Positions 2,464 to 64,000 of a DNA stretch of 64,000 nt are shown here, piece after piece. Source of the stretch: Pseudonocardia sp. (GTDB taxonomy: Bacteria > Actinomycetota > Actinomycetes > Mycobacteriales > Pseudonocardiaceae); assembly GCA_026785945.1 (NCBI GenBank), contig JAJAZD010000286.1:13063-77062 (forward strand). Direction: 5' to 3'. The position numbers and the translations under genes were made by a program. Numbering within the stretch: the first letter of the stretch is position 1; the number at the start of each line of letters is the position of its first letter. Below the pieces are notes generated by a model. The model saw only the letters and a list, made by a program, of their open reading frames with translations, did no database searches and was not told the DNA's origin.

Positions 2464-3830
2464 GGTGTTCTCCCGTGGTGATCACTCGGCTGTGTCAGGA
2501 CGCGGAGTTCCTCGTCCACCATCTCCCGCAGTTCGGACAGATCGGGGCAGGTGTCGGGGTCCGCGGCGAGCGTGATCCTGAGGCTGCCGGCATAGGACAG
2601 GACGGCGAAGGCGACCGTCACGTTCCCCGTGGGCGCACTGAGCGGGACGACGGTCGTGATCGGGCAGCCGAGGAACGACAGGCGGGCATCCGGTCCGCGC
2701 AGGTTGCTCACGAAGGTGTGGATCAGCCGTTGACGGTCGACGAACCACCGGTAGAGACCCACCGCCGCCAGCAGGCGGAACAAGGGGCTCAGCAGTGCCG
2801 TCGAGGCGCCGGGCCGGCCCGACCTGGCGGCCCGGGTCGTCGCCGCCAGCGAGATGAGCCGTTCTGCGGGGCCGCCCGCTCCGGCGACGCGCAGGGGAAT
2901 GACTCCGCTCCGGTTGCCCAGGTCGTGTGCCGTGGTGTGGCGCCGGGTGGAGAAGGGCACCGAGATGACGACGTCGTCGATGTGCTCGCCGCGCAGCGCG
3001 AGGAGGCGGTGCAGAGCCGCGGCGACCGCCGACAGGACGACGTCGTTCACCGTGGCGCCGTGCCTATGGGCCGCTGCACGAACCTCGTCGAGGTCGACCT
3101 GGACGCCGGCGAAGCGCCTGCGTGGTCCCGTAGGCCTGTTGAGCGACGATCGCGCCGGTCGCCCGCGCAAGACCGGTCCCAGTTGTGAGGCGCCGCCCCG
3201 CAGGCGTCGCAGAGCCGCCGGGATCCTCCCGGCTCCCCGCAGGCGATCGATCGCCGCCTCGCCGGCGAGATGCCGCCGTGAGGGCATGGGGCGGGGGAAC
3301 GCGGAGTCGTGGGTGTCGGCTGCGCCGTCGACGAGGCCGGCCAGGACGGCCAAGCCGCCGATCCCGTCGGCGAGCACGTGGTGGAACACGATGATCAGCG
3401 CCGAGTCGCCCTGGCCGGTGTCCGTCATCAACCTCGCCGTCCACAATGGGCGATCGCGGGGCAGTCGGGTGACGAGCATGTCGGCCGCAACCGCCAGGAC
3501 GGCGCTCTCACCGCCGGGCGACGGACACGGGACCATGGCGAGGTGGTTGCCGACGTCGAAGTCGCGGTCGTCGACCCACACCGGCCGACCACACCCCCAG
3601 GGAACCTTCACGAGACGTTGGCGCAGGCGCGGGACGGCAGTGATCCGGCGGGCGAGGGCGTGCAGGACGAACTCGGGATCGAGACGCTCGCTCGTGTCCA
3701 GCAGCAGGACCGCCCCGACCTGCATCGGCGTGGACCCGCGCTCGGCGGCGAGAGACATCAGATCGTCGGTGCTCACCCGCTCGGTGCTCACCCGCTCGGC
3801 AGGACGGTGCGTGGACAGCTCCTGACTCAC
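2460..3830 (-). CDS. Wax ester synthase/diacylglycerol acyltransferase (WS/DGAT)
   Basis: PMQVGAVLLLD N-terminus, catalytic HHxxxDG (FHHVLADG), C-terminal FVSNLRGP; GTG at 3830 overlaps ppdK stop (GTGA). Confidence 0.9.
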   Translation of the reverse strand: MSQELSTHRPAERVSTERVSTDDLMSLAAERGSTPMQVGAVLLLDTSERLDPEFVLHALARRITAVPRLRQRLVKVPWGCGRPVWVDDRDFDVGNHLAMVPCPSPGGESAVLAVAADMLVTRLPRDRPLWTARLMTDTGQGDSALIIVFHHVLADGIGGLAVLAGLVDGAADTHDSAFPRPMPSRRHLAGEAAIDRLRGAGRIPAALRRLRGGASQLGPVLRGRPARSSLNRPTGPRRRFAGVQVDLDEVRAAAHRHGATVNDVVLSAVAAALHRLLALRGEHIDDVVISVPFSTRRHTTAHDLGNRSGVIPLRVAGAGGPAERLISLAATTRAARSGRPGASTALLSPLFRLLAAVGLYRWFVDRQRLIHTFVSNLRGPDARLSFLGCPITTVVPLSAPTGNVTVAFAVLSYAGSLRITLAADPDTCPDLSELREMVDEELRVLTQPSDHHGRTP

Positions 3831-7844: not shown

Positions 7845-8554
7845 GCGGGCCGACCGTGCACCGCACGGTGGTCGGCGACATCATGACCATCACGGTGCTG
7901 TCCGTCGGACCCGCGACGGCGGTCACCGAGATCGCGGTGGTGCTCTACGCCGGGGCGGTGCGCGCGGTCCCGGTCCTCGACGAGGAGGGCAGGCTGCTCG
8001 GCGTGGTCTCCGAGGCCGACGTGCTCGCGACGCTGCCGGATACGGCCCCCGGCGAGGACCACCCCTGGTGGCGCCATCGCCCGCGGCACATCCACCGCAC
8101 GCCGCCGCCACCGAAGGTCGGGGCCGGGACAGCGCGGGGGCTCATGACGGAATCCGTGATCACGGTAGGCGCGACGGCGACGGTGACGAGCGCGGCGCGG
8201 ACGATGCGCGAGCACGGTCTGAGCTGGCTGCCGGTCGTGGACGCCGACCGGCGGGTGGTCGGCGTGCTCAGCCGCTCCGACCTGCTCGCGGTGTTCCTGC
8301 GGGGCGACGACGCGATCCGCACCGAGGTCGTCGACGAGGTGCTGGGCCGGATGGTGCTCGTCGAACCGGCGCGCGTCGACGTCGACGTGGTCGACGGGGT
8401 CGTCACGATGACCGGGGAGGTCGACACCCGGGTCGACGCCGTGCTCGCGGTGCGCTTCGTCGAGCGTCTCGAGGGTGTGGTCGAGGTGGTCGACCATCTG
8501 AGCTTCCGGGTGGACGACCGTGACGCCACCCTCGACATCGCCCCGCTGTACTGA
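7841..8554 (+). CDS. CBS-pair + BON domain protein
   Basis: Two CBS motifs (VPVLDEEGRLLGVVSEADVL; LPVVDADRRVVGVLSRSDLL) and C-terminal BON (VVDGVVTMTGEV); GTGA overlap with USP. Confidence 0.88.
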   Translation: MSGPTVHRTVVGDIMTITVLSVGPATAVTEIAVVLYAGAVRAVPVLDEEGRLLGVVSEADVLATLPDTAPGEDHPWWRHRPRHIHRTPPPPKVGAGTARGLMTESVITVGATATVTSAARTMREHGLSWLPVVDADRRVVGVLSRSDLLAVFLRGDDAIRTEVVDEVLGRMVLVEPARVDVDVVDGVVTMTGEVDTRVDAVLAVRFVERLEGVVEVVDHLSFRVDDRDATLDIAPLY

Positions 8555-8583
8555 CACCCGACTCCGGCGGGCCTCCGGGCCGA

Positions 8584-9305
8584 TCATGACTCCGGGAGGG
8601 TCCGGGCGACGAGGTCGACCAGGTCGACGGTCCGCTGCGCGTAGCCCCACTCGTTGTCGTACCAGCCGAAGATCTTGGCCGTGCTCCCGACGACCCGGGT
8701 CAGCCCGGCGTCGAAGAGGCACGAGGCCGACTCGCCGATCACGTCGTGGGACACGACGGGATCGGTCGTGTACCGCAGGATGCTCTTGAGGGGTCCGTCG
8801 GCGGCGGTCTGGAACGCCCGGTTGATCTCCTCGGCGGTGGCGGGTCCGGTGAGCCGGACGGTCAGGTCGACCAGCGACCCGTCGACCACCGGGACGCGCA
8901 CCGCGATGCCGTCGAGCCGCCCGGCGAGCCGGGGGAGCACCTGACCGATGGCCCGCGCGGCGCCCGTGGTGGTGGGGATGATGTTGACCGCCGCGGAGCG
9001 GGCGCGGCGCATGTCCTTGTGCGGCCCGTCGAGCAGGTTCTGGTCGGAGGTGTAGCTGTGGATCGTGGTGAGCAGGCCCTCCTCGATCCCGAACGCCTGG
9101 TCCAGGACCAGCGCCATCGGCGTCGCGCAGTTCGTCGTGCACGAGGCGTTGGAGACGATGTGGTGCGCCGCGGCGTCGTAGACCTCCTGGTTGATCCCCA
9201 TCACGACGGTGGCGTCCACGTCCGTGCCCGGTGAGGTCAGGACCACCTTCCGCGCACCCGCGGTGAGGTGGGCGGTGGCGCGCTCGCGGGTGCGGAACCG
9301 GCCCG
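8584..9305 (-). pseudogene. gap: Type I glyceraldehyde-3-phosphate dehydrogenase lacking the first ~90 residues
   Basis: GRFRTRERATAHLTAGARKVVL, catalytic SNASCTTNC, WYDNEWGY; in-frame TAG just upstream (~9323) and no NAD-binding GFGRIG motif. Confidence 0.85.
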
Positions 9306-13326: not shown

Positions 13327-13932
13327 TCAGGCAAGGAACCGGAACCGTTCGACGATCGGGAGGCGCTCCCACGTCCTGCCCAGTCCGAGGGTCCGGCCGG
13401 CACCGACGAGGACGAGGATCCCCAGGAGCATGGCGTAGATCAGGTGGTCGTCCATGAACGGGTTGGTGGCGGGCGGCAGGACCGCGGTCCACATGAGGAA
13501 CAGTAGCACCGCACCGGAGACCGCCGCGATGCGCATCGCGATGCCGAGCATGAGGGCGACCCCGATGCCGAGCAGGCCGATCATGAACAGCCAGTCGGCC
13601 CACGCCGCACCGGCGATCGAACCGTAGGCGTCGGCGAAGGGACCCTGCGTGGCGTTGCCCAGGAAGCCCTTGGTCGGCGACCCGCCGTTGAGCCAGGCGG
13701 CATCCCCGAAGACGGCGACGGCGCCGGTCTCCTTGTCGCGGCCGGTGGCGAAGCCGAGAGCGAAGGTCTTGTCGATGAACGCCCAGAGGAACACCCACCC
13801 GATGCTCAGCCTCGTGACGGCGGCGAGGTAGCGCAGCGCCGTCCGCGATGTCGGCCCGGTCCCCGGGTGGATGGACGGCGTGGCCTCCGTGCTCGGGACT
13901 GAGGTTCTCCTGCTCGGGACTGCGGTGCTCAT
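13327..13932 (-). CDS. DoxX/DoxD-family membrane protein
   Basis: RLSIGWVFLWAFIDK, GSPTKGFL, NPFMDDH. Confidence 0.85.
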   Translation of the reverse strand: MSTAVPSRRTSVPSTEATPSIHPGTGPTSRTALRYLAAVTRLSIGWVFLWAFIDKTFALGFATGRDKETGAVAVFGDAAWLNGGSPTKGFLGNATQGPFADAYGSIAGAAWADWLFMIGLLGIGVALMLGIAMRIAAVSGAVLLFLMWTAVLPPATNPFMDDHLIYAMLLGILVLVGAGRTLGLGRTWERLPIVERFRFLA

Positions 13933-14037
13933 GACGGCCTCTCTGAGTGGATGGCGGCCTGGTGGCTGATCAGATCCCGTCGCTTCTCGCGGTGGGGGTC
14001 ATGGACCCATCCTGATCACCGGAGCGTTGCGGTGGCA

Positions 14038-14074
14038 GAGCTGAACGTCCCGAGGCGGCGGGGTCGAAGTGCCG
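14038..14074. promoter_or_regulatory. Pair of DosR/DevR-like boxes upstream of doxX
   Basis: revcomp GGGACGTTCAGCTC (14038-14051) and CGGCACTTCGACCC (14061-14074), 23 bp apart. Confidence 0.5.
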
Positions 14075-14107
14075 GACCTGGCCCGGACCGGCGGGTGTCC
14101 TCCCGGT

Positions 14108-14926
14108 TCAGAGGACGGTCAGGCCGTGGGAGCGGAACCGGTCCTCCACGCGCTCCACCAGCTCCTGCGACGGCGGGGCGTGGGCCCCCAGCTGGTAAGG
14201 GAGCCCGAGCTCGGCCCACTTGCCCGCACCCAGGTGGTGGAACGGCAGGACCTCCACCCGATCGACGCCGTCGAGGGTGGCGACGAACGCGGCCACCGCC
14301 TCGACGTTCTCGGGCGCGTCGGTGAGTCCCGGCACCAGCACGAAACGCACCCACATCCGGTTGCCCCGGTCCGACAGCCGGCGGGCGAAGCGCAGCGTCG
14401 GTGCGAGGTCCGCGCTGGTGACCAGGCGGTAGGTGTCGGGGTCGCCGGACTTGATGTCGAGCAGGAACAGGTCGACCAGGTCGAGGAACTCGTCGGTGGC
14501 CCGGTCGCCGAGGAACCCCGAGGTGTCCACGGCGGTGTGCAGCCCGAGGTCGTGGCGGCAGCGGCGCAGCAACGCCTCCAGGAACCGGATCTGCAGCATC
14601 GGTTCGCCGCCGCTGACGGTGATCCCGCCGTGCGCGGTGGTGACGAACGCCGCGTACTTCGCGATCTCGTCCACCATCCGTCCCGTCGTGACCCGGCGGC
14701 CGTCGCCCATCGTCCACGTGTCGGGGTTCTCGCAGTACTGGCAGCGCAGCGGGCACCCGGACAGGAACAGGGTGAACCGCACGCCGGGCCCGTTGACGGC
14801 GCCGGTGATCTCGTAGGAGTGGTAGTAGCCGATCTCCGGGTCCCCCTCCTGCGCCAGCTCCGCCTCGAGCTCGGCCCGCGACCCGCCGTGACGCTCGCGC
14901 ACCGGCGTGATCGGGAGCCGGCGCAT
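14108..14926 (-). CDS. pflA: Pyruvate formate-lyase activating enzyme (radical SAM)
   Basis: CPLRCQYC (CxxxCxxC), [15 protein letters not shown]; TGATG overlap with pflB. Confidence 0.93.
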
Positions 14927-17229
14927 CAGAGCGAGCCGTGGAACGTGCGGTGGATGACGTCGAGCTGTTGCTCCCGGGTGAGCCGCACGAAGTTCACCGC
15001 GTACCCGGACACCCGGATGGTCAGCTGCGGGTAGCGCTCGGGGTGCTCCATGGCGTCGAGCAGGGTGTCCCGGTCGAGCACGTTGACGTTGACGTGGAAA
15101 CCGTGCGCGCCGAAGAAGCCGTCGAGGATGCCGGTGAGGTTCTCGACCTGCTCCGCCGCGGTCTTCCCCAGTGCGGTCGGCACGAGGTTGCTGGTCAGCG
15201 AGATGCCGTCGCGCGCCTGGTCGTAGGGCAGCTTGGCGACCGAGAGCGCCGAGGCCACCCAACCGTGCCGGTCGCGCCCGTTCATCGGGTTCGCACCGGG
15301 GGAGAAGGGCTCGCCCGAGCGGCGGCCGTCGGGGGTGTTCCCGGTGGCCTTGCCGTAGACCACGTTCGAGGTGATCGTCAGCACCGACTGGGTGTGGGTC
15401 GCCCCGCGGTAGGCGCGATGGCGGCGGATCTTCTCCATGAACCGTTCCACCAGCCCGACCGCGATGTCGTCGACGCGGTCGTCGTTGTTGCCGTACGCCG
15501 GGTAGCTACCCTCGATCCGATAGTCGACGACCAGACCGGTGTCGTCGCGGACGACCGTGACGCGGGCGTCCCGGATCGCGGACAGGCTGTCGGCGGTGAC
15601 CGCCAGACCAGCGATGCCCATCGCCATCGTGCGGTGCACCGGGTGGTCGTGCAGCGCCATCTCGATGCGCTCGTAGGCGTACTTGTCGTGCATGTAGTGG
15701 ATGACGTTGAGCGCGTCGACGTAGACACGGGCGAGCCAGTCCATCTCGACGTCGAGCTTGGCCAGCACGTCGTCGTAGTCGAGCAGGTCTCCGGTCACGG
15801 GCGCGGTGGGCACCGCCACCTGCAGGCCGCTCTTCTCGTCGCGCCCGCCGTTGATGGCGTAGAGCAGCGTCTTCGCCAGGTTGACCCGGGCGCCGAAGAA
15901 CTGCATCTGCCTGCCGAGGGTCATCGCCGAGACGCAGCACGCGATGGCCGTGTCGTCGCCGGTCACGGGGCGCATCAGCTCGTCGGACTCGTATTGGATG
16001 CTGCTCGTGTCGATCGAGGTCCGGGCGGCGAAGTCCTTGAAGCCCTGGGGCAGCGCCGGCGACCACATCACGGTGAGGTTCGGCTCCGGGGCCGGGCCCA
16101 GGTCGTGCAAGGTCTGCAGGAAGCGGAACGAGCTGCGCGTCACCAGCGTCCGTCCGTCGGCGCCCATGCCGCCGATGCACTCGGTCACCCACGTCGGGTC
16201 GCCGGAGAACAGGGCGTCGTACTCCGGGGTGCGCAGGAAGCGGACGATCCGCAGCTTGATCACGAAGTCGTCGATCAGCTCCTGGGCGCGCGACTCGTCG
16301 ATGCGGCCGTCGTCGAGGTCACGCTGCAGATAGATGTCGAGGAACGTCGACGTGCGCCCCAGCGACATCGCGGCGCCGTTCTGCTCCTTCACCGCGGCGA
16401 GGTAGCCGAAGTAGAGCCATTGGATCGCCTCCTGCGCCGTGCCGGCCGGGCCCGAGATGTCGAACCCGTAGGAGGCGGCCATCTCCCGCAGTTCGCCCAA
16501 GGCCCGGATCTGCTCGGCCAGCTCCTCCCGGTCGCGGATGACGTCCTCGCTCGAGGGCAGCGCGTCGAGCGAGGACTTGACGAGCTGCTTGTCCGCGACG
16601 AGCCGGTCGGTCCCGTAGAGGGCGACGCGGCGGTAGTCGCCGATGATGCGGCCACGCCCGTAGGCGTCGGGGAGGCCGGTGATGATGTGGGAGCGCCGGG
16701 CCGCGAGAATCTCCTCGGTGTAGGCGTCGAACACCCCGTCGTTGTGGGTCTTGCGGTACTTCGTGAAGATCTCCGCGACCCGCGGGTCGACCTCGTACCC
16801 GTAGGTCCGAAGGCTTGTCTCGACGACGCGCCAGCCGCCGTTGGGCATGATCGCGCGGCGGAGCGGGGCGTCGGTCTGCAGGCCGACGATCAGCTCGGCG
16901 TCCCGGTCGATGTAGCCGGGGGCGTGCCCGGTGATCGACGCCGGGGTGTGCGTGTCGATGTCGTGGACGCCCCGCGCGCGTTCCTGCGGGAACAGCGCCG
17001 TCATGCGCGCCCACAGGGCCGTCGTCCGGTCGGTGGGTCCGGCCAGGAACGACGCGTCGCCCTCGTAGGGCGTGTAGTTGTCCTGCAGGAACTGTCGGGG
17101 GTCGATCGAGCCGCGCCAGCCCTGCCCCCGGAAACCGCGCCACGGATCTCCCGCGCGGGTGTCTCCCGACGGGTGGCGGTCGGTGGCGCTCCTCGGCCCG
17201 GGGACAGGGCTCCGCACGGTCTGGGTCAT
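14926..17229 (-). CDS. pflB: Pyruvate formate-lyase (formate C-acetyltransferase)
   Basis: 767 aa; catalytic IACCVS, glycyl radical [15 protein letters not shown]. Confidence 0.97.
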
Positions 17230-56296: not shown

Positions 56297-57424
56297 ATGC
56301 TTCTTCGACGAGTCGCTCGGCCCCTGCTCGCGGGCATCTTCATCTACGGCGGCATCAACACCCTCAGGAACCCCCAGGGCCACGTACAGGTCGCGAAGCC
56401 GGTGCTGAACGCCGTCTCACCCGCGGTCGACCAGGTCGTCGAGGTGGCCCCCATCGACCACCGCCCGGACGACGAGCTGCTCGTCACGATCGACGGCGCG
56501 GTCAAGGTCGCGGCCGGCTCGCTCCTGGCGCTCGGCGTGTGGCCGCGTCTGGCGTCCGTGGCGCTGGCCGCGTCGCTCGTCCCGACGACCCTGGCCGGGC
56601 ACCGCTTCTGGGAGGCGACCGACCCCCAGGAGCGCACCGACCAGCAGATCCAGTTCCTCAAGAACCTCGGCCTGCTCGGCGGGCTGCTGATCGCCGCCGC
56701 CGACACCGAGGGCAAGCCCTCACTCGGTTGGCGCGGCCGCCGGGCCGCCTCGCTCGCCACCGCGGCCGCGGCGGCCCAGGCCTCGGCCCTGTCGCAGACC
56801 GCGTCCGACGTCTCGAACCGCGTCTCGGACGTCGCCCACGACGTCACCGGCCGCGTGACGGGCACGGCGCACGACGCCTCGGCCACCGTCGGCGGGATCG
56901 CCGCGGGCCTGGTCGGGCTCGCCCCCGGCGCCGGTGCGGCGATGTCCTCGCGCGCGTCCAAGGCGGGTGCGGACCTGTCCTCACGGGCGTCGGTGCTGAG
57001 CGAGGACTGGACCGCCCGTGCGGTCAAGGCCGCGAAGAGGGCCGAGAAGCGGGGAGTGAAGCTGCAGAAGCTGGCAGCCAGGAGGCGCAAGGAGCTGGAG
57101 AAGGTCGCGGGGAAGAAGCGCGCCGAGCTGGAGAAGGCCGCGGGGAAGAAGCGGGCCGAGCTGGAGCGCTCCGCGGGGAAGCGGTCCGCGTCGCTGCAGA
57201 AGCGGGCGTCCAAGCGGGTCGCCGAGCTGCAGAAGGCGGCGCAGGACAGCCGCGCCGAGCTGGAGAAGCGGGCCCCTGCCGTCATCGACCAGGTGACCAC
57301 CCAGGCCGCGAAGCTCGGGCACGACGTGGCCGAGCGCGCGTCCGCGGTGGGTGCCGAGGTCGTGCACCAGGCCGAGGGTGTGGCCAAGGACGCCCGCAAG
57401 CGGGCCCACGCGCTGACGCGCTGA
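56297..57424 (+). CDS. DoxX-family membrane protein with long C-terminal 11-mer helical repeats
   Basis: RPLLAGIFIYGG, TTLAGHRFWE, FLKNLGLLGGLL; KRAELEKAAGK-type repeats. Confidence 0.85.
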   Translation: MLLRRVARPLLAGIFIYGGINTLRNPQGHVQVAKPVLNAVSPAVDQVVEVAPIDHRPDDELLVTIDGAVKVAAGSLLALGVWPRLASVALAASLVPTTLAGHRFWEATDPQERTDQQIQFLKNLGLLGGLLIAAADTEGKPSLGWRGRRAASLATAAAAAQASALSQTASDVSNRVSDVAHDVTGRVTGTAHDASATVGGIAAGLVGLAPGAGAAMSSRASKAGADLSSRASVLSEDWTARAVKAAKRAEKRGVKLQKLAARRRKELEKVAGKKRAELEKAAGKKRAELERSAGKRSASLQKRASKRVAELQKAAQDSRAELEKRAPAVIDQVTTQAAKLGHDVAERASAVGAEVVHQAEGVAKDARKRAHALTR

Positions 57425-57440
57425 CTGCCGCCGGGCGGCC

Positions 57441-57530
57441 GCCCCCCCCGCGCCCCGCGCCCCCCCCCCCCCCGGGGCCCCCCGCGGCCCCCGGGGCCGC
57501 GCGCCCCCCCGCCCCCGTCCCCGGGGCGGG
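57441..57530. repeat. C-rich low-complexity tract (13-C run)
   Basis: Almost entirely C/G, multiple C runs. Confidence 0.7.
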
Positions 57531-57600
57531 GCCCGAACGCGTGGGCTGCCACAGGCCACGGCACCTGACGACGTCACTCCCGCTAACCTGACCGCACACT

Positions 57601-57675
57601 GGGGCGGTAGCTCAGCTGGTCAGAGCAGCGGACTCATAATCCGTCAGGTCGTGGGTTCGAACCCCACCCGCCCCA
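57601..57675 (+). tRNA. tRNA with CAT anticodon, most likely Ile2 (lysidine type); CCA not encoded
   Basis: GGGGCGG/CCGCCCC acceptor, TAGCTCAG D-arm, GCGGA-CTCATAA-TCCGT, GTGGG-TTCGAAC-CCCAC; lacks initiator C1:A72 and GGG:CCC features. Confidence 0.93.
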
Positions 57676-57732
57676 CATACGCGCAGGTCAGCGAGTCGCT
57701 GAGTCGCCTCCGGTACGCTACAGCGGTCCGAT

Positions 57733-57754: not shown

Positions 57755-57777
57755 CCGTGGCGGAGGGGGCGAGATCG

Positions 57778-59004
57778 ATGGCGCGACCACCGTTAGCGAT
57801 GGGTACCCACGGCAGCATCTCTGTGAAGAAGCCCGTGGGCGGCCCGAGTTGGGTCGCGCGTTGCCGGTTCCGCGACTTCGACGGTGTGACCCGCTCGCTG
57901 GAGTACGTCGGCCGGTCGAAGACGGCGGCCGCGGCTGCGTTGCAGGACGCGCTGCAGGACCGGATGGGTTCGCCGAAGGCCCAGCTGAGGCCGCAGTACA
58001 CGTTCGAGCGAGCCTCGGAGATGTGGCTGTCCAAGCTCGATGCCCAGGTGGCCGAGGGCACGCGGGCGACGACGACGGCTGACACCTACCGGCAGCGCCT
58101 GCGGTCGGTGATCCTCCCGGCGATGGGGCAGTGGCGGCTCTACGAGTGCACGGTGCCGCAGCTGGACGGCTTCTTCCGGGGCCTCACGGCGACCCAGAGC
58201 GCGCAGTCCCGTAGGACGATCCGGACTGTCGTCTCGTTGATCCTGCGGCTGGCCGTGCAGCACGAGGCAATCCGGGACAACCCCGTCCGGCACCTGGACC
58301 CGATCGAGTCCGGCTTGCGGAGGCCGCGGGCCCTCACCACCGCGGAGCGCAGTCGCTTCCTGGGGTGGATGGGTGGTGTGTCGGAGGACGAGACCGAAGC
58401 GCGGGCCCAGGCGGCAGCGCGCCGGCGCGACCTGCCCGACATCGTCACGTTCATGCTCGGCACCGGGGTGCGCATCGGTGAGGCCCTGGCGGTCCGGTGG
58501 TGCGATGTCGACCTCGAGGGCGTGCCTGTAGTCGACGGGGACGAGCTGCGTGCGGTGCCCATCGTCGCCATCACCGGGAACGTCGTGCGACACCGCGGGA
58601 AGGGTCTGCACCGGCACGCCGGCAAGACCGAGATGGCGTTGCGGATCGTGCCGCTGCCGCGGTTCGTCGTGGCGACGCTCGCTGCACGAGAGATGCATGG
58701 GCCGGAGGTGCCAGTCTTCCCAGCTGCGGGAAGCAAGCGGGCGGGCCTGAACTGGAAAGACCCGAACAACATGTCGACCTACATCCGCGAGGCACGCCAG
58801 GCGGCGGGGATGGATTGGCCGGTCACCAGTCACACCTTCCGCAAGACGGCTGCGACGGTCTGGCACGACTCCGGGCTGCTGACGGGTCGGCAGAAGGCGG
58901 ACCTGACTGGCCACGCGAAGATCAGCACGCTGACCGACATCTACGTCGCGCGAGGGGAGCTCCACCCGCAGGGGGCGGCAGTGATGGACGCCGCGTGGGC
59001 TTGA
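57778..59004 (+). CDS. Tyrosine site-specific integrase
   Basis: MARPPLAMGTHGSI N-terminus; R (GVRIGE), K (GKT), HxxR (HTFR), GH, Y (TDIY) all present. Confidence 0.93.
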   Translation: MARPPLAMGTHGSISVKKPVGGPSWVARCRFRDFDGVTRSLEYVGRSKTAAAAALQDALQDRMGSPKAQLRPQYTFERASEMWLSKLDAQVAEGTRATTTADTYRQRLRSVILPAMGQWRLYECTVPQLDGFFRGLTATQSAQSRRTIRTVVSLILRLAVQHEAIRDNPVRHLDPIESGLRRPRALTTAERSRFLGWMGGVSEDETEARAQAAARRRDLPDIVTFMLGTGVRIGEALAVRWCDVDLEGVPVVDGDELRAVPIVAITGNVVRHRGKGLHRHAGKTEMALRIVPLPRFVVATLAAREMHGPEVPVFPAAGSKRAGLNWKDPNNMSTYIREARQAAGMDWPVTSHTFRKTAATVWHDSGLLTGRQKADLTGHAKISTLTDIYVARGELHPQGAAVMDAAWA

Positions 59005-59165
59005 CACATGAATTGATCCTCGAACATTCAAATGTAACGCGTGCCGTGTTGGCCACTTAGGACTTGAATGTAACGTTCTCTTGCTCCACGGCGAAGTACA
59101 GGCGGAAGTTGTCAATAGTCCTGACATGACCTGCCAATGTACAAATTTTCCAGAATGGGGCCAGC

Positions 59166-62100
59166 GTGAGCGCGGCAGGACTCGAAGGTGCAGCTATCAA
59201 GTTCGGGATCACGATTGCGAATGCGGCGGTTCGAGCGATTGCCTCGCAGCAAGAGAAGCGCCAGATCTCAACGAAAGGTCTTGTCGAACTAGCTGATCAG
59301 CGGTTGTCGCCCATCAATCGTTGGGCAGCAAATCGAAGAATCGACGATATCGGCGAAAAGATTGCGCGCCGACTTGAGCCCCTGTACGCTAACGAATTTG
59401 TCGGTACGACTGACGACGACAGAAGCATGGTAATTGCGTTGGCGTCAAGTCTGATAGAGGAGGCAGATATAGATGACCGTATGCTATTTGACGTCGGCAT
59501 GTCTGCGAGGGTTCTTGCTGATCATATTTGGGGGTCTGCTCGAAAGAAAATTGTCCAATCACAGTTGGGATCACGAGACGAGGAATTACTTCAGAGGGCT
59601 TTGCTTGAGGGATGTCAGTGTCTGCTTCAGACCGTATTGATTCTGAAGCCGTTCGTGGCTCGAGCGATCTTGGAGGTGCTGGTCCAGCAGAAAGGCTTCG
59701 AAGATCGGTTAGATGAATTGCTGAGTCGGGGTCAGCGGCCTCTGTTCCGCTCTCGCATGGGGCCTGACGAAGAAGGATACCTTAGTGCGTACCAGGCTGT
59801 CGTTGTTGCGCAACTGGACCATCTTGACATCTTCGGAATCGAAGTCACGTCACGTTTGCGGTTGAAGCTCAGTCTAGGCTACCTCGGTCTTTCTGTGGAG
59901 ACTGAGAGCAGTGATTCCGTGATGAGGCCGGTCGACCCAAAGTATTACGTGGATAGCTCAGCTAATCAAACCCATAAGCTGCCAGTTACGGAAGCCTTTG
60001 GCAAGGGGCGGCGCTTCCTTGTTAGGGGTGAAGCTGGGTCCGGCAAGAGTACTCTTCTTCGGTGGATAGCAGTAACTGCGGCTCTGAAAGAGTTTACTGG
60101 TGATCTCCAGAGCTGGAATTCTCTAACTCCTTTCATGTTGAAGCTGCGTTCCTACGCGTCAAAGTCACTTCCTACAGTGGAGGAGCTCGTTAGAGATCTG
60201 GCTCCCAGTCTGTCGGATGCGAAGCCTGACGACTGGGTTCATCGGACTTTCAGCGCTGGAAACGGCCTATTGCTAATTGATGGACTGGATGAGCTTGAGG
60301 ATAGCAAACGCTACGAGGTACATGCATGGATAACTGGTCTACTAACGACATTCCCGGCATTGACAGTCATAGTTACTACCCGACCATCTGCAGTCGAGCC
60401 TAGATGGCTATCCGAAGTCAATTTTGTGTCCCTCGCGATCGAGCCGCTTTCCCCGCCGGAATGCCGGGCATTTGTCCATCGCTGGCATGATGCAGCCGCT
60501 GCTGCCGAATACCTGCCATGTGATGTCTCGGAGCTCCCCGTATATGAGAGCGGTCTTCTGCGTGAGTTGGACGCGAAACTGCACCTTAGGTCTCTCGCGT
60601 CCAGTCCACTTCTCGCTGCCATGATTTGCGCGCTCAACTTGGATCGCGACGGGCAGCTACCTGAGAGCCGTCGCGACTTGTACGAGTCTGCCCTTGACCT
60701 GCTCCTTGTCAGGCGGGATCGTAAACGAAACATCACCGCCAAGAACGTGCAGTTGACGAAATCAGCGAAGATTACCATTCTCAGGAATCTGGCACTGCAC
60801 CTGAGCCTCAACAATCGAACGGAGATATCTACTGCAGGCGCCTTATCGAATATTGCTCAGGCAATGAAAGTGCTTCCAGAGCAGCCGAATGAGCCTAATG
60901 AGGTGCTCGAATATCTGAAGCAGCGAAGCGGCGTGATTCGAGAACCGACAAATGGTCGACTCGACTTTATTCACAAGACATTCCAAGAATTCCTGACGGC
61001 CCAAGCGGTTGTGGAGCTGGACTTGACCGGACTGCTGATCGAGAACGCAGACAAGGATAGATGGCGTGAGGTGATCCTGATGTTTCCTGCGCAGGCCACC
61101 GAGCCTCAGCGGAAGATGCTGATACGTGGCCTTATTGATCGAGCTACCGATAGCTTGGGTCGACAGAGGTTGCAGTTGAGGTTGCTATCTGCGGTCTGCG
61201 CTCAATACCTGGTAAATAATCCGGCGCTTCGCGAGGAGACGTTGACGTTGATTGGCCAGGTACTTCCTCCTCGCGATCTTGCATCGGCCGCGATGCTTGC
61301 ATCAATGGGGGAATCTGTCTTGCCCATGTTGGCTCCTCGAATTGAGGATCTGGATGAATCGGCTGGGCTCGCATCGATAAAGACTGCAGCGATGATCGGG
61401 GGGCAGAGTGCGTTGAATCTTTTGTCACACTACGCATCTGACTCACGATCACGGCTTCAGCAAGCACTAATTGAATCTTGGGAGTATTTTCAATCTGAAG
61501 TTTTCGCGAGAGATGTCCTTAAGGATGCGGCACTTGATTCTGGATCCGTTACGCTCGCGACGACTAGACCTATCCGGCACTTGAGTCATCTCCGCAATAT
61601 TCGGCGACTACGAATTGATCTTGCACGACTTGTGCGAGATAGAGACCCGCGAATTCAAGAGGACCTCGCCTTTTTGGTTGACGTACCACAGCTGGTTCGA
61701 CTGGACCTCGATACGCGAGGAATTACTAACCTGTCGTTCTTGAACCAGCTAATATATATCGAAGAGTTGTCGCTCTGGGGCGCGGCTGGACTCGTGTCGG
61801 GAGATGTATTGCAAGGCATGGCCGCGTTGAAACGGCTATTGCTCAGTGAGGCGTTTTTGAAGGATGGACTGCAGTCGCTAGGCGGGGTGTTATCGAGACT
61901 TCAAACTCTCGGTCTGACGAGCATGATGGGGTCTGTCGACTTCAATCACTTGCTACCGGCGAATCTCCGAACATTGTCGCTACGAAAATGCAAAATAGTT
62001 GGATGGGAGCAAGTCTCCCGAATGTCTACTATCCAATCGCTACGAATCGAGCGCTGCACGACGATCGCCCTGCCGTTAAAGCACCTCTCAGAACTTAAGC

Positions 62101-62276
62101 AGCTCGCGCATCTCGCGATAATGAAGATGCCTGCGAATCTTGTCGCCGATCTCGGTGCTCTCGCTGAGATGGAATCGTTGTCCACTCTTGAAATAGATGT
62201 TCCGTTGTCGGCCGACTTGAGACAGAAGCTTGAAGATGGAGGCGTAGCCGTCAACTCGGCACGGCCGAGTCGTTGA
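59166..62276 (+). CDS. NACHT NTPase with N-terminal helical domain and C-terminal LRR-like repeats (bacterial NLR-like)
   Basis: Walker A GEAGSGKST (60027-53), Walker B LLLIDGLDE, TTRP, PLLAAMIC, FIHKTFQEFL, LxxLxL repeats; GC ~50-55% by eye. Confidence 0.88.
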   Translation: MSAAGLEGAAIKFGITIANAAVRAIASQQEKRQISTKGLVELADQRLSPINRWAANRRIDDIGEKIARRLEPLYANEFVGTTDDDRSMVIALASSLIEEADIDDRMLFDVGMSARVLADHIWGSARKKIVQSQLGSRDEELLQRALLEGCQCLLQTVLILKPFVARAILEVLVQQKGFEDRLDELLSRGQRPLFRSRMGPDEEGYLSAYQAVVVAQLDHLDIFGIEVTSRLRLKLSLGYLGLSVETESSDSVMRPVDPKYYVDSSANQTHKLPVTEAFGKGRRFLVRGEAGSGKSTLLRWIAVTAALKEFTGDLQSWNSLTPFMLKLRSYASKSLPTVEELVRDLAPSLSDAKPDDWVHRTFSAGNGLLLIDGLDELEDSKRYEVHAWITGLLTTFPALTVIVTTRPSAVEPRWLSEVNFVSLAIEPLSPPECRAFVHRWHDAAAAAEYLPCDVSELPVYESGLLRELDAKLHLRSLASSPLLAAMICALNLDRDGQLPESRRDLYESALDLLLVRRDRKRNITAKNVQLTKSAKITILRNLALHLSLNNRTEISTAGALSNIAQAMKVLPEQPNEPNEVLEYLKQRSGVIREPTNGRLDFIHKTFQEFLTAQAVVELDLTGLLIENADKDRWREVILMFPAQATEPQRKMLIRGLIDRATDSLGRQRLQLRLLSAVCAQYLVNNPALREETLTLIGQVLPPRDLASAAMLASMGESVLPMLAPRIEDLDESAGLASIKTAAMIGGQSALNLLSHYASDSRSRLQQALIESWEYFQSEVFARDVLKDAALDSGSVTLATTRPIRHLSHLRNIRRLRIDLARLVRDRDPRIQEDLAFLVDVPQLVRLDLDTRGITNLSFLNQLIYIEELSLWGAAGLVSGDVLQGMAALKRLLLSEAFLKDGLQSLGGVLSRLQTLGLTSMMGSVDFNHLLPANLRTLSLRKCKIVGWEQVSRMSTIQSLRIERCTTIALPLKHLSELKQLAHLAIMKMPANLVADLGALAEMESLSTLEIDVPLSADLRQKLEDGGVAVNSARPSR

Positions 62277-62523
62277 TGCGTTGGCCCTCCTGAGAGCCGT
62301 TCATGCATTTGATAGTTGCGCGGGCCGCGCGGGACTCGACGTCCGGGACCGCCGTCTGCGCCTGCGCCGAAGTGCTCAAGAAGGCTGCAAGGTGTGCCGT
62401 CGAGTGGCGTCCAGATGTCGACATGCTGCTCGGCGGACGGGCCAAGAACTGATCGGACGTGCCGCGGGTGTTGTCGAGATGGGAGCATGTTGGTGACGTT
62501 GAGCCAACCGATCGGAGCGGTGC

Positions 62524-63182
62524 ATGGGCAAGCAGGTAGGCGTGGGGGCGCGGTGGCTCCACGTGGCTGAGACCGTGGCCGCTGCTCCGCCCGATGGGTC
62601 GGACGTCGGCGAGGTGATTCGCTGGTATCGCCAACGTGAGGGGCTGACCCAGCAGGACGCGGCGACGCTGCTCAACACGACGCAGTCCCGGCTGTCGAAG
62701 CTGGAGAAGGGCTCGCAGGCTCTCCGTGACATCGTCGAGCTGCGCCACGTCGCGAGCAAGCTCGGCATCCCGCCGGAACGGCTGGGGGTACTGCCGGACC
62801 GTTCGGGCGACGCCACGCCACGTGCCGAGGCGGTCAGCCTCGATCCGGGGCCAGTTCGCGATAGCCAGGAGCGGTGGCGGGGGGTCCGGGCCGAGTTGAA
62901 CGGGCATCGGGCGCTGCTTGGCGACTTGGCGTCTGACCTCTACCCGGCCGAGCAGCGAATCGCCGGGACGAGCGTCCTGACTGCCGAGGGTTGGATGCCG
63001 GACGAGCCCGTGGACCTGGCGGCCGTCGAGGTGCAGTGGTTGCCTGAGTCCCCGCCGTCGGACATCACAGGCAAGGCGCTCGAGGCCGCCGGGTCCCGCG
63101 CGGCGCTGCCGTCGGGCAAGCCTTATGACCGGTACTCCCGCGCGCTGAGGGATCTCGCCCGGCCGAAGCTGTTCGACAACCG
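62524..63182 (+). pseudogene. XRE-family HTH protein, copy 1, 3'-truncated
   Basis: VIRWYRQREGLTQQDAATLLNTTQSRLSKLEKG; similarity to copy 2 stops at LFDNR, then ORF runs out of frame to 63270. Confidence 0.8.
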
Positions 63183-63256
63183 ACATCTATGTCGCCCGCG
63201 GGGAGCTCCACCCGCGCGGGGCAGCCGTCATGGACGCCGCGTGGATGGACACCTGA
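63182..63256 (+). pseudogene. 3' tail of a second tyrosine integrase
   Basis: Encodes DIYVARGELHPRGAAVMDAAWMDT*, 20/21 aa identical to the int C-terminus at 58936-58998, with synonymous differences. Confidence 0.88.
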
Positions 63257-63344
63257 CGTTGCGAGCGTGAGGATCACGCTCGCTCGAAGGTGAGAGCATG
63301 TCCCGGACGGCGGCGGGCAATCGATCGGGGCGGGGCGCGTGGGA

Positions 63345-64000
63345 ATGCCAGCAGATGCGGAGGAACGGTGGCTGCACGTGGCTGAGACCGTGGTGGCGGC
63401 GCCACCGGACGGGTCCGATGTCGGCGAGGTGATTCGCTGGTACCGCCAACGTGAGGGCCTGACCCAGCAGGACGCGGCCGCGCTGCTGAACACGACGCAA
63501 TCGCGGCTCTCGAAGCTGGAGAAGGGCTCCCAGGCCCTTCGGGACGTCGTCGAGCTGCGGCATATCGCGAGCAAGCTCGGTATCCCACCGGAGCGGCTGG
63601 GGGTGCTCCCGGATCGTTCGGGTGACGCCACCCCCCGTGCGGAGACGGTCAGCCTCGATCCGGGACCGGCGCGCGACGGTCAGGAGCGGTGGCGGGCCGT
63701 GCGGGCCGAGTTGAACGCGAATCGTGCGAGGCTCGGAGACCTCGCGGCCGACCTCTACCCGCAGGAGCGGCGCATCCCCGGGACGAGCGTCCTTACCGCC
63801 GCCGGGTGGGTGCCCGACGAGCCCGTGGACCTGGCGGCCGTTGAGCTGCTCTGGCTACCCGAGTCCCCGCCGCCGGAGATCACGGGCAAGGCGCCCGAGG
63901 CGGCCGGGTCCCGCGCGGTGCTGCCGTCCGGGAAGCCCTACGACCGGTACTCGCGCGCTTTACGGGACCTCGCCCGACCGACGTTGTTCGACAACCGGGT
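63345..64000 (+). CDS. XRE-family HTH protein with uncharacterised C-terminal domain, copy 2, partial
   Basis: ATG 63345 (or GTG 63378) open to window end; WLHVAETV..VIRWYRQREGLTQQDAAALLNTTQSRLSKLEKG..YDRYSRALRDLARPTLFDNR. Confidence 0.85.
   Translation, partial: MPADAEERWLHVAETVVAAPPDGSDVGEVIRWYRQREGLTQQDAAALLNTTQSRLSKLEKGSQALRDVVELRHIASKLGIPPERLGVLPDRSGDATPRAETVSLDPGPARDGQERWRAVRAELNANRARLGDLAADLYPQERRIPGTSVLTAAGWVPDEPVDLAAVELLWLPESPPPEITGKAPEAAGSRAVLPSGKPYDRYSRALRDLARPTLFDNR

Follow-up and report, generated by a model that had tools for sequence, protein, structure and literature searches.

How did the tail of an integrase gene come to lie at the broken end of a regulator gene, within a genomic island that carries another, full-length integrase near its left end? 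The question is raised by a locus in a draft genome of Pseudonocardia sp. (labelled G000; 380 contigs, 4.46 Mb, 95% complete, 2% contamination), which is compared here with the relatives labelled G001, G027, L032, L036, L038, L061, L062, and L063. The window, by which we mean the whole 64,000-nt stretch of DNA that was analysed, corresponds to bases 13063-77062 of contig C286 (80,389 nt). The contig extends 3,327 nt beyond the window, and the last gene of the window, xre2, is readable in full together with its neighbours. An initial annotation had read the locus as two stacked elements collapsed by a microhomology deletion. The features on which the argument turns are listed below in window coordinates.

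57601..57676, plus strand: tRNA-Met (CAT), detected by ARAGORN
57757..59004, plus strand: int1, a tyrosine integrase gene (PF00589, 37.1 bits, cut-off 27.1; PF22022, 28.4, cut-off 27)
58933..59011, plus strand: int1 region homologous to the stub by alignment, containing a 1-nt indel near 58999
59012..62474, plus strand: low-GC (49–59%) NACHT cargo cassette, placed by the GC profile, with an approximate right edge (62417-62475)
59166-62276: NACHT/STAND gene of 1036 aa (PF22733, NNH1; PF05729, NACHT)
62524..63270, plus strand: xre1', a truncated XRE-family gene, found as an ORF (PF13560, PF01381; 84.7% identical to xre2)
63179..63182, no strand: proposed recombination joint, the 4-nt microhomology ACCG, by direct reading and alignment
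63182..63256, plus strand: int2 stub, 24 codons and a stop, ending WMDT, by alignments to int1 and relatives
63261..63283, plus strand: perfect 10-bp hairpin (GCGAGCGTGA/TCACGCTCGC), -26.8 kcal/mol, z = -4.9
63339..64000, plus strand: xre2, an intact 491-aa XRE-family gene, reaching window coordinate 64814 on the contig

The tRNA-Met gene is the integration site and the left end (attL side) of the island. The same tRNA hosts integrases 75–87% identical in G001, G027, L036, L038, L061, and L062, and the attR repeats of the relatives correspond to the last 36–45 nt of tRNA-Met. The first gene of the island, int1, belongs to the tyrosine recombinases by Pfam scores above the gathering cut-off and by full-length alignment to homologues. 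The ATG at 57778 is its probable start and yields a protein of 408 aa; the homologues begin MARPPLAMGTHGS and reach 90% identity, a value found for P0001 across 98% of the length. The catalytic tyrosine lies within DIY396V. The description of int1 as the only visible integrase extends to the whole assembly, where it is the sole full-length copy of its kind in 380 contigs.

Some observations concern the surroundings of this tRNA. Between the stop codon of the upstream gene and tRNA-Met lies a C-rich low-complexity tract (57425-57535, 84% GC, runs of up to 14 C) that may be difficult to sequence or may act as a structured spacer. The upstream gene itself encodes C-terminal tandem amino-acid repeats of the type KKRAELEKAAGKKRAELE (window 57040-57260). 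In the relative L032 (G027:C54), a 46-nt, 98% copy of the 5' half of tRNA-Met is found at 8554-8599, about 750 nt upstream of the real gene. Att repeats normally copy the 3' half of a tRNA, and the 5'-half copy is therefore unusual.

The switch from regulator to integrase sequence that had been reported at 63179-63256 is borne out by alignment: aligned with the 3' end of int1 (58933-59011), this segment is 84.8% identical across 79 nt, one gap included (E 4e-17), and the ungapped part of the match reaches 88% over 66 nt. Read in the integrase frame, the stub encodes DIYVARGELHPRGAAVMDAAWMDT before its stop, and its int1 counterpart encodes DIYVARGELHPQGAAVMDAAWA. The two are identical at 20/21 amino acids and 55/63 nucleotides, and the six synonymous codon differences noted earlier are recovered, the remaining change being Q->R; by codon position, the eight nucleotide differences fall 0/1/7. 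When polarised with five relatives, the derived changes of the stub are mostly at third positions, and the stub retains an open frame and the consensus ending of the family. Its nucleotide identity to other members is comparable to that with int1: 52/63 for L038, 50/63 for L036, and 46–52/63 in four of the five relatives, L032 (37/63) having an extra codon in its tail. Several database integrases match the stub at 23/24 amino acids, and its WMDT ending is identical to that of P0008, P0010, and P0041. By these comparisons, the stub reads as the family-level tail of a tRNA-Met integrase and not as a specifically int1-like sequence.

The deviant ending belongs, on the same alignments, to int1. 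Its protein ends AAWA, while 24/25 relatives that were read end AAW[LMIQ][DNH][TS] and P0033 ends AAWHT. The 1-nt indel, located just past the TGG codon near 58999, shifts the int1 stop two codons forward and replaces the last three residues. The old TGA stop is still visible at 59009-59011, and the homology of the int1 and stub tails reaches that point. The stub appears to have kept the normal family ending.

At 75 nt, the stub contains the codon of the catalytic tyrosine and lacks a start. It begins two codons ahead of that tyrosine (DIY) and includes no other part of the catalytic domain; of the full set (R-K-H-R-H/W-Y), the R, H, and R boxes lay upstream, in the lost part. The stub is thus a non-functional fragment of a PF00589 family gene, a recombination scar that is not itself a working part. 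It lies +1 out of frame with xre1 and, because it also lacks a start codon, it is missing from ORF lists, in agreement with the earlier remark that the ORF track overlooks it. The fusion of this tail to XRE copy 1, as the initial annotation put it, is real at the DNA level but does not hold at the protein level, since the integrase tail is out of frame and no fusion protein results.

The 4-nt sequence ACCG at 63179-63182 was correctly singled out as common to both genes. It is the last stretch shared with xre2, which reads TTCGACAACCG followed by GGTG, and the first shared with the integrase, which reads CTGACCG followed by ACATC (ACCG at 58933-58936). The regulator context of the joint is GACAACCG and the integrase context CTGACCG. 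Past TTCGACAACCG, xre2 runs on as GGTGAGCTAC (..LFDNRVSYRLL.. in the protein) and copy 1 as ACATCTATGTCGCC; an unbroken xre1 would be expected to continue past the joint as AACCGGGTGAGCTAC. Just 3' of the int2 stop, the hairpin at 63261-63283 folds better than any of 200 shuffled sequences (0/200 fold as well). It is probably the old terminator of int2, and it now stands at the end of the xre1' ORF as well.

On the regulator side of the joint, xre1' consists of 220 XRE codons, with the helix-turn-helix (HTH) at residues 28-86, and 28 out-of-frame codons that run through the integrase stub. It lacks the last 271 residues of the 491-aa XRE-family protein, and all XRE relatives continue ..LFDNRVSYRLL.. 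beyond the truncation point. The alignment of the two copies called for at the outset is ungapped: 62551-63182 and 63366-63997 are 84.7% identical, without an indel in 632 nt, and their differences fall 18/12/67 by codon position. Both proteins pass as XRE-family regulators with an N-terminal Cro/C1-type helix-turn-helix (PF13560: 38.2 for xre1' and 37.0 for xre2, cut-off 27; PF01381: 32.5 and 33.5, cut-off 23). The C-terminal ~400 aa of the XRE protein have no match among the Pfam, NCBIfam, and PADLOC families. Downstream of xre2 follow an overlapping NAD-epimerase gene, a 154-aa HTH gene on the minus strand, a small xis-like gene, and small membrane ORFs, after which the contig ends. In many Pseudonocardiaceae MAGs (L001:8402-10815, L002-L017), the gene for the 491-aa protein (xre491) makes up a conserved pair with the overlapping gene for an NAD-dependent epimerase, which is GalE-like but scores below the equivalog cut-off. 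The pair is found in and out of integrase-linked islands and is often preceded by a ~175-aa HTH gene.

Between int1 and xre1' lies the NACHT cassette (59012 to about 62474), across which GC falls from ~70% to 49-59%. Upstream of the two xre copies, the intergenic regions resemble each other weakly (pairwise score 24, shuffles 17.8 ± 2.3), and the cassette boundary is better fixed by comparison with relatives, in which homology upstream of the xre gene restarts at 62475 (L062) and 62417 (L063). Since the homology of L062 to copy 1 resumes at 62475, this position is taken as the right edge. A 30-nt inverted match between 62324-62353 and the xre sequence was judged a chance similarity in GC-rich DNA and gained no support from BLAST. 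Upstream of the NACHT gene (59020-59079), a TTCAAATGTAACG / TTGAATGTAACG motif occurs twice, and its two copies can also pair with each other as an inverted repeat (59024-59031 and 59063-59070); this region folds no better than its shuffles. The motif pair may be an operator of the cargo cassette.

To place the stub and the two regulator genes, it is necessary to know how such genes are arranged elsewhere. In a search of genome contigs with XRE2, 17 loci were recovered at no more than 75% identity; a ~175-aa HTH gene precedes the xre–epimerase pair there, and none has an int1-like integrase within 10 kb. Conversely, the close relatives of int1 at the same tRNA-Met (G001, G027, L036, L038) are followed by quite different cargo. 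A DNA search of 137 genomes of the genus, with the stub, the intergenic region, and xre2 as the query, gave integrase-tail and xre matches that were never adjacent, and two metagenome pattern scans for this adjacency were empty. It was finally found through a large protein collection, by way of XRE proteins 84-89% identical to xre2. The 3,163-nt contig L061 reads tRNA-Met 3' end, int (410 aa), 136 nt, xre491, epimerase. In the 13,192-nt contig L062, an orphan gene of 790 aa on the opposite strand separates int, which follows the tRNA-Met 3' end, from xre491 and the epimerase; beyond the epimerase follow a small HTH gene on the minus strand, small ORFs, a WhiB-like gene, and a TraG/VirD4-like coupling protein (PF02534, 62.5 bits; PF12696, 61.4 bits). 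L062 is collinear with window positions 63367-67052 at 77%, and the DNA of its int is 85% identical to that of int1. In L063, genes for AbiD and a methyltransferase lie upstream of the xre gene. The two layouts that the broken locus recalls, an 'element 1' of int, cargo, and xre (compare L062) and an 'element 2' of int directly followed by xre (compare L061), both occur as ordinary members at tRNA-Met.

The cargo between int and xre differs in each of the three members compared: the NACHT cassette here (59012-62474), the 790-aa orphan in L062 (L062:1482-3854), and AbiD with the methyltransferase in L063 (L063:1402-4759). As read from these three sequences, the int–xre gap appears to be the variable cargo slot of one ICE-like family, so far undescribed, that occupies tRNA-Met in Pseudonocardiaceae, and it looks like a candidate slot for defence genes. 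As regards ICE genes, the window contig shows only int, an unclassified xis-like ORF, and small membrane ORFs before it ends; no relaxase or attR was identified. Neighbouring members of the tRNA-Met group show further variation. L038 carries a MalT-like STAND NTPase (13341-15515; WHD_MalT, TPR_MalT) about 2 kb downstream of its int1-like integrase, so that genes of the STAND type recur in tRNA-Met islands. In L036, whose int is 87% identical to int1, a 7-kb tRNA-Met island ends in a perfect 36-nt attR at 16783-16818, and directly after it (to 21233) comes a second element with two unrelated integrase genes, an accretion-like arrangement.

The evidence gives good support to a reading in which the stub, xre1, and xre2 derive from two elements of a single family that had diverged and became joined at a 4-nt microhomology, and we hold it very probable that ACCG marks a real illegitimate joint of two sister elements. 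Over a shared 627 nt, the two xre copies are 84.5% identical, and each is 81-83% identical to L062 and L063, which come from unrelated samples; being barely closer to each other than to outside elements, they argue against a duplication in situ. With nine outgroups as reference, 10 amino-acid changes are assigned to the xre1 branch and 6 to the xre2 branch, 8 being ambiguous, a balance expected if both copies evolved as working genes until recently. These substitution patterns show that the copies diverged under coding constraint, each as a working gene of a separate element, and that the joint is young relative to their divergence. A microhomology-driven duplication in place would have copied the segment that begins at the ACCG of int and ends at that of xre, the copies then diverging side by side and the NACHT cassette entering copy 1 later. 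It has the merit of producing the exact topology (the int 5' part, two copies of the duplicated segment, the xre 3' part) and the exact joint without a second full element. An out-of-frame stub would, however, have been neutral from birth, and from the third-position divergence of xre (67/210) we estimate that about ten changes at positions 1 and 2 should have accumulated in its 75 nt, whereas only 1/8 of the differences fall there and the open frame and consensus ending survive. Nor does xre1' show an amino-acid excess over xre2 or any indel. We therefore reject duplication in situ, on the grounds of where the differences fall within codons, how evenly the changes are spread over the two branches, and how far the copies stand from outside elements, and regard it as highly improbable. 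That the joint exists in no single genome, being either a chimeric contig of two strains in a metagenome bin or an amplification chimera, is only slightly less improbable. The draft is fragmented and slightly contaminated, and exact-protein look-ups of the xre1' ORF (with two alternative starts) and of the NACHT protein returned no independent record. A misjoin in a de Bruijn graph needs a shared k-mer, though, and the parents have only 4 nt in common at the joint, and the two copies nowhere match exactly over more than 26 nt; no Ns stand at the joint, and the bin holds no contigs with the alternative paths (the xre1 3' half, the int2 body).

How the two elements were joined is less settled than that they were, and we give an even chance to the most simple route, a deletion within a tandem array. 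It would start from two sister ICE-like elements with ~15% nucleotide divergence, both targeting the 3' end of tRNA-Met and both with the native layout tRNA-Met, int, (cargo slot), xre491, epimerase, HTH gene, xis-like gene, and, further on, a TraG-like coupling protein. Element 1 (int1, NACHT cargo, xre1) would have integrated beside a resident element 2 (int2, xre2) to give a tandem array. One RecA-independent, microhomology-mediated deletion could then have joined ACCG at xre1 codon 219/220 to ACCG in int2 (codon ~393), two codons before the catalytic tyrosine, removing the rest of element 1, the middle att, and ~1.18 kb of int2 in a single step. The composite left behind would comprise int1, the NACHT cargo, the HTH-only xre1', the 75-nt int2 stub with its hairpin, and an intact element-2 backbone, and int1 might still be able to move it. 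This route is supported because both parental layouts exist free-standing at tRNA-Met (L061, L062), because the differences are biased to third positions in the stub as in xre, and because in L036 the attR of the tRNA-Met island is immediately followed by another element that bears integrase genes. In actinomycetes, moreover, integrative elements are documented to accrete and decay at a single tRNA site (PMC9513070). The assembly contains no second copy of int, the xre 3' half, the epimerase, the HTH gene, or the xis-like gene, and the rest of element 1 therefore seems to be gone. Against a tandem deletion stand the lack of an att between the parts or at the right end, on a contig that stops 3.3 kb past the window, and the fact that a single inter-molecular illegitimate crossover would leave an identical sequence, in an assembly that is a 380-contig draft. 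In that case no tandem array would have formed: a conjugated element 1 would have recombined with the resident element 2 through a left-hand homologous crossover, placed in the tRNA, the flank, or int, and a right-hand illegitimate one at ACCG, replacing the 5' part of the resident int and leaving its last 75 nt. Such an event would count as homology-facilitated illegitimate recombination; an unequal crossover of two chromosomes bearing different islands would amount to the same. It fits all the two-element sequence facts equally well, takes one event instead of two, and accounts for the absence of an internal att remnant; GC-rich microhomology, of which the 4 nt found here are an example, is also said to be typical of such joints. 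Still, with only 75 nt of int2 surviving, too little sequence is left in which to seek a mosaic breakpoint in int1. Elements with a working integrase normally enter site-specifically, which yields tandem arrays (PMC9513070), and we consider the inter-molecular exchange rather unlikely.

Of the initial annotation's account of stacked elements and one deletion, two parts stand: the two diverged elements and the ACCG joint. Its tandem stage with att sites finds no internal att, attR, or tandem relative in its favour, and the deletion as cause shares its product with a single crossover involving an incoming sister element. The att evidence is as follows. A tandem array carries three att repeats (attL, middle, and attR), and here the att sequence is found only at the tRNA itself; there is no second copy on C286, no good copy in the assembly, and no attR. 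Of two integrases there are one intact gene and a 75-nt piece of a second from the same family. The locus is not a tandem array today, and the missing middle att does not refute a tandem history, because the proposed deletion would itself remove the middle att. The hunt for intact tandem arrays at tRNA-Met found none of this element family in the 137 genus genomes or the metagenome scans. Reconstruction of an empty site failed, as relatives that lack an int1-like integrase have DNA to the right of their tRNA-Met locus that maps to different contigs of G000.

One further fragment of the assembly concerns the right end. Contig C177 (L054) contains at ~3170-3213 (blastn 3180-3213) a tRNA-Met-like fragment, 88% identical over 35 nt, that matches the part from the anticodon loop to the T arm, lacks the acceptor end, and is not accompanied by a tRNA gene. 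It is flanked by low-GC (50-60%) DNA with a trypsin-like peptidase gene and, on the opposite side, a DDE (IS) transposase. The fragment could represent the relic of an old att site or mark the right end of an island. A link between C177 and C286 was not established, and their contig ends do not overlap.

With the deletion in a tandem array as the preferred route, it may be asked whether the broken regulator gene still has a role. The upstream region of xre1 is conserved with L062 and L063 from 62475 and 62417, respectively, and xre1' could still be made from it as a 248-aa HTH-only protein. A bolder proposal combines a dedicated, reused slot for defence cargo with the retention of xre1' as a second regulator, an immunity or decoy repressor acting on the NACHT cargo or on excision. 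We regard this combination as improbable; if it were true, the scar would have created a new regulatory part.

The locus offers a clean, datable example of the building of a composite genomic island. A 75-nt integrase fossil and a 4-nt joint suffice to suggest that the NACHT gene, a gene of defence type, now rides on the backbone of an element other than the one that carried it. Tools for island boundaries or ICE typing that count integrases would call the locus one element. The comparison also points to an uncharacterised element family of soil actinomycetes with the order int, cargo slot, xre491, epimerase, TraG-like gene.

Integrative elements are already known to accrete and decay, and the joint is an ordinary scar of such decay that calls for no new mechanism. 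Composites of streptococcal ICEs and CIMEs are reportedly formed by accretion and decay at one site, and hybrid ICEs reportedly arise from SXT/R391 tandem arrays. The SXT/R391 hybrids resemble the present case in that two related elements at one site give rise to one hybrid that keeps cargo of both. They differ in that homologous exchange (by RecA or Bet/Exo) takes place in conserved backbone genes and the genes remain intact, whereas here an illegitimate exchange between the non-homologous genes xre and int left two gene fragments. Hotspots of defence genes are said to occur in SXT ICEs (hotspot 5) and in P2/P4, and the int–xre gap is similar in carrying differing, partly defence-type cargo; the likeness covers three members compared by sequence and concerns the neighbourhood, not the stub. 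Homology-facilitated illegitimate recombination and microhomology-mediated deletion are both reportedly established routes to such joints, the former typically with GC-rich microhomology. A microhomology of a few bases, as homology-facilitated illegitimate recombination would leave, is present at the joint (ACCG, 63179-63182), and across the insert related sequence was available to serve as an anchor. The definition of that process comes from naturally transformable bacteria kept under selection, whereas here it is only a candidate route whose anchor is not located; the term itself occurs in PMC6382021. The closest likeness is to the accretion of ICEs and AICEs in Streptomyces (PMC9513070), in which related elements with the same att specificity accumulate at one tRNA, remnants lack part of the backbone, and a surviving integrase may move the composite in cis. 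The published arrays keep direct repeats between their units, whereas here the middle att and nearly all of the second integrase are gone and the tandem stage would have to be supplied; the joint, unlike those of accretion arrays, runs from gene to gene at a 4-nt microhomology. What this locus adds to these systems is another instance, together with a newly outlined element family and its cargo slot.
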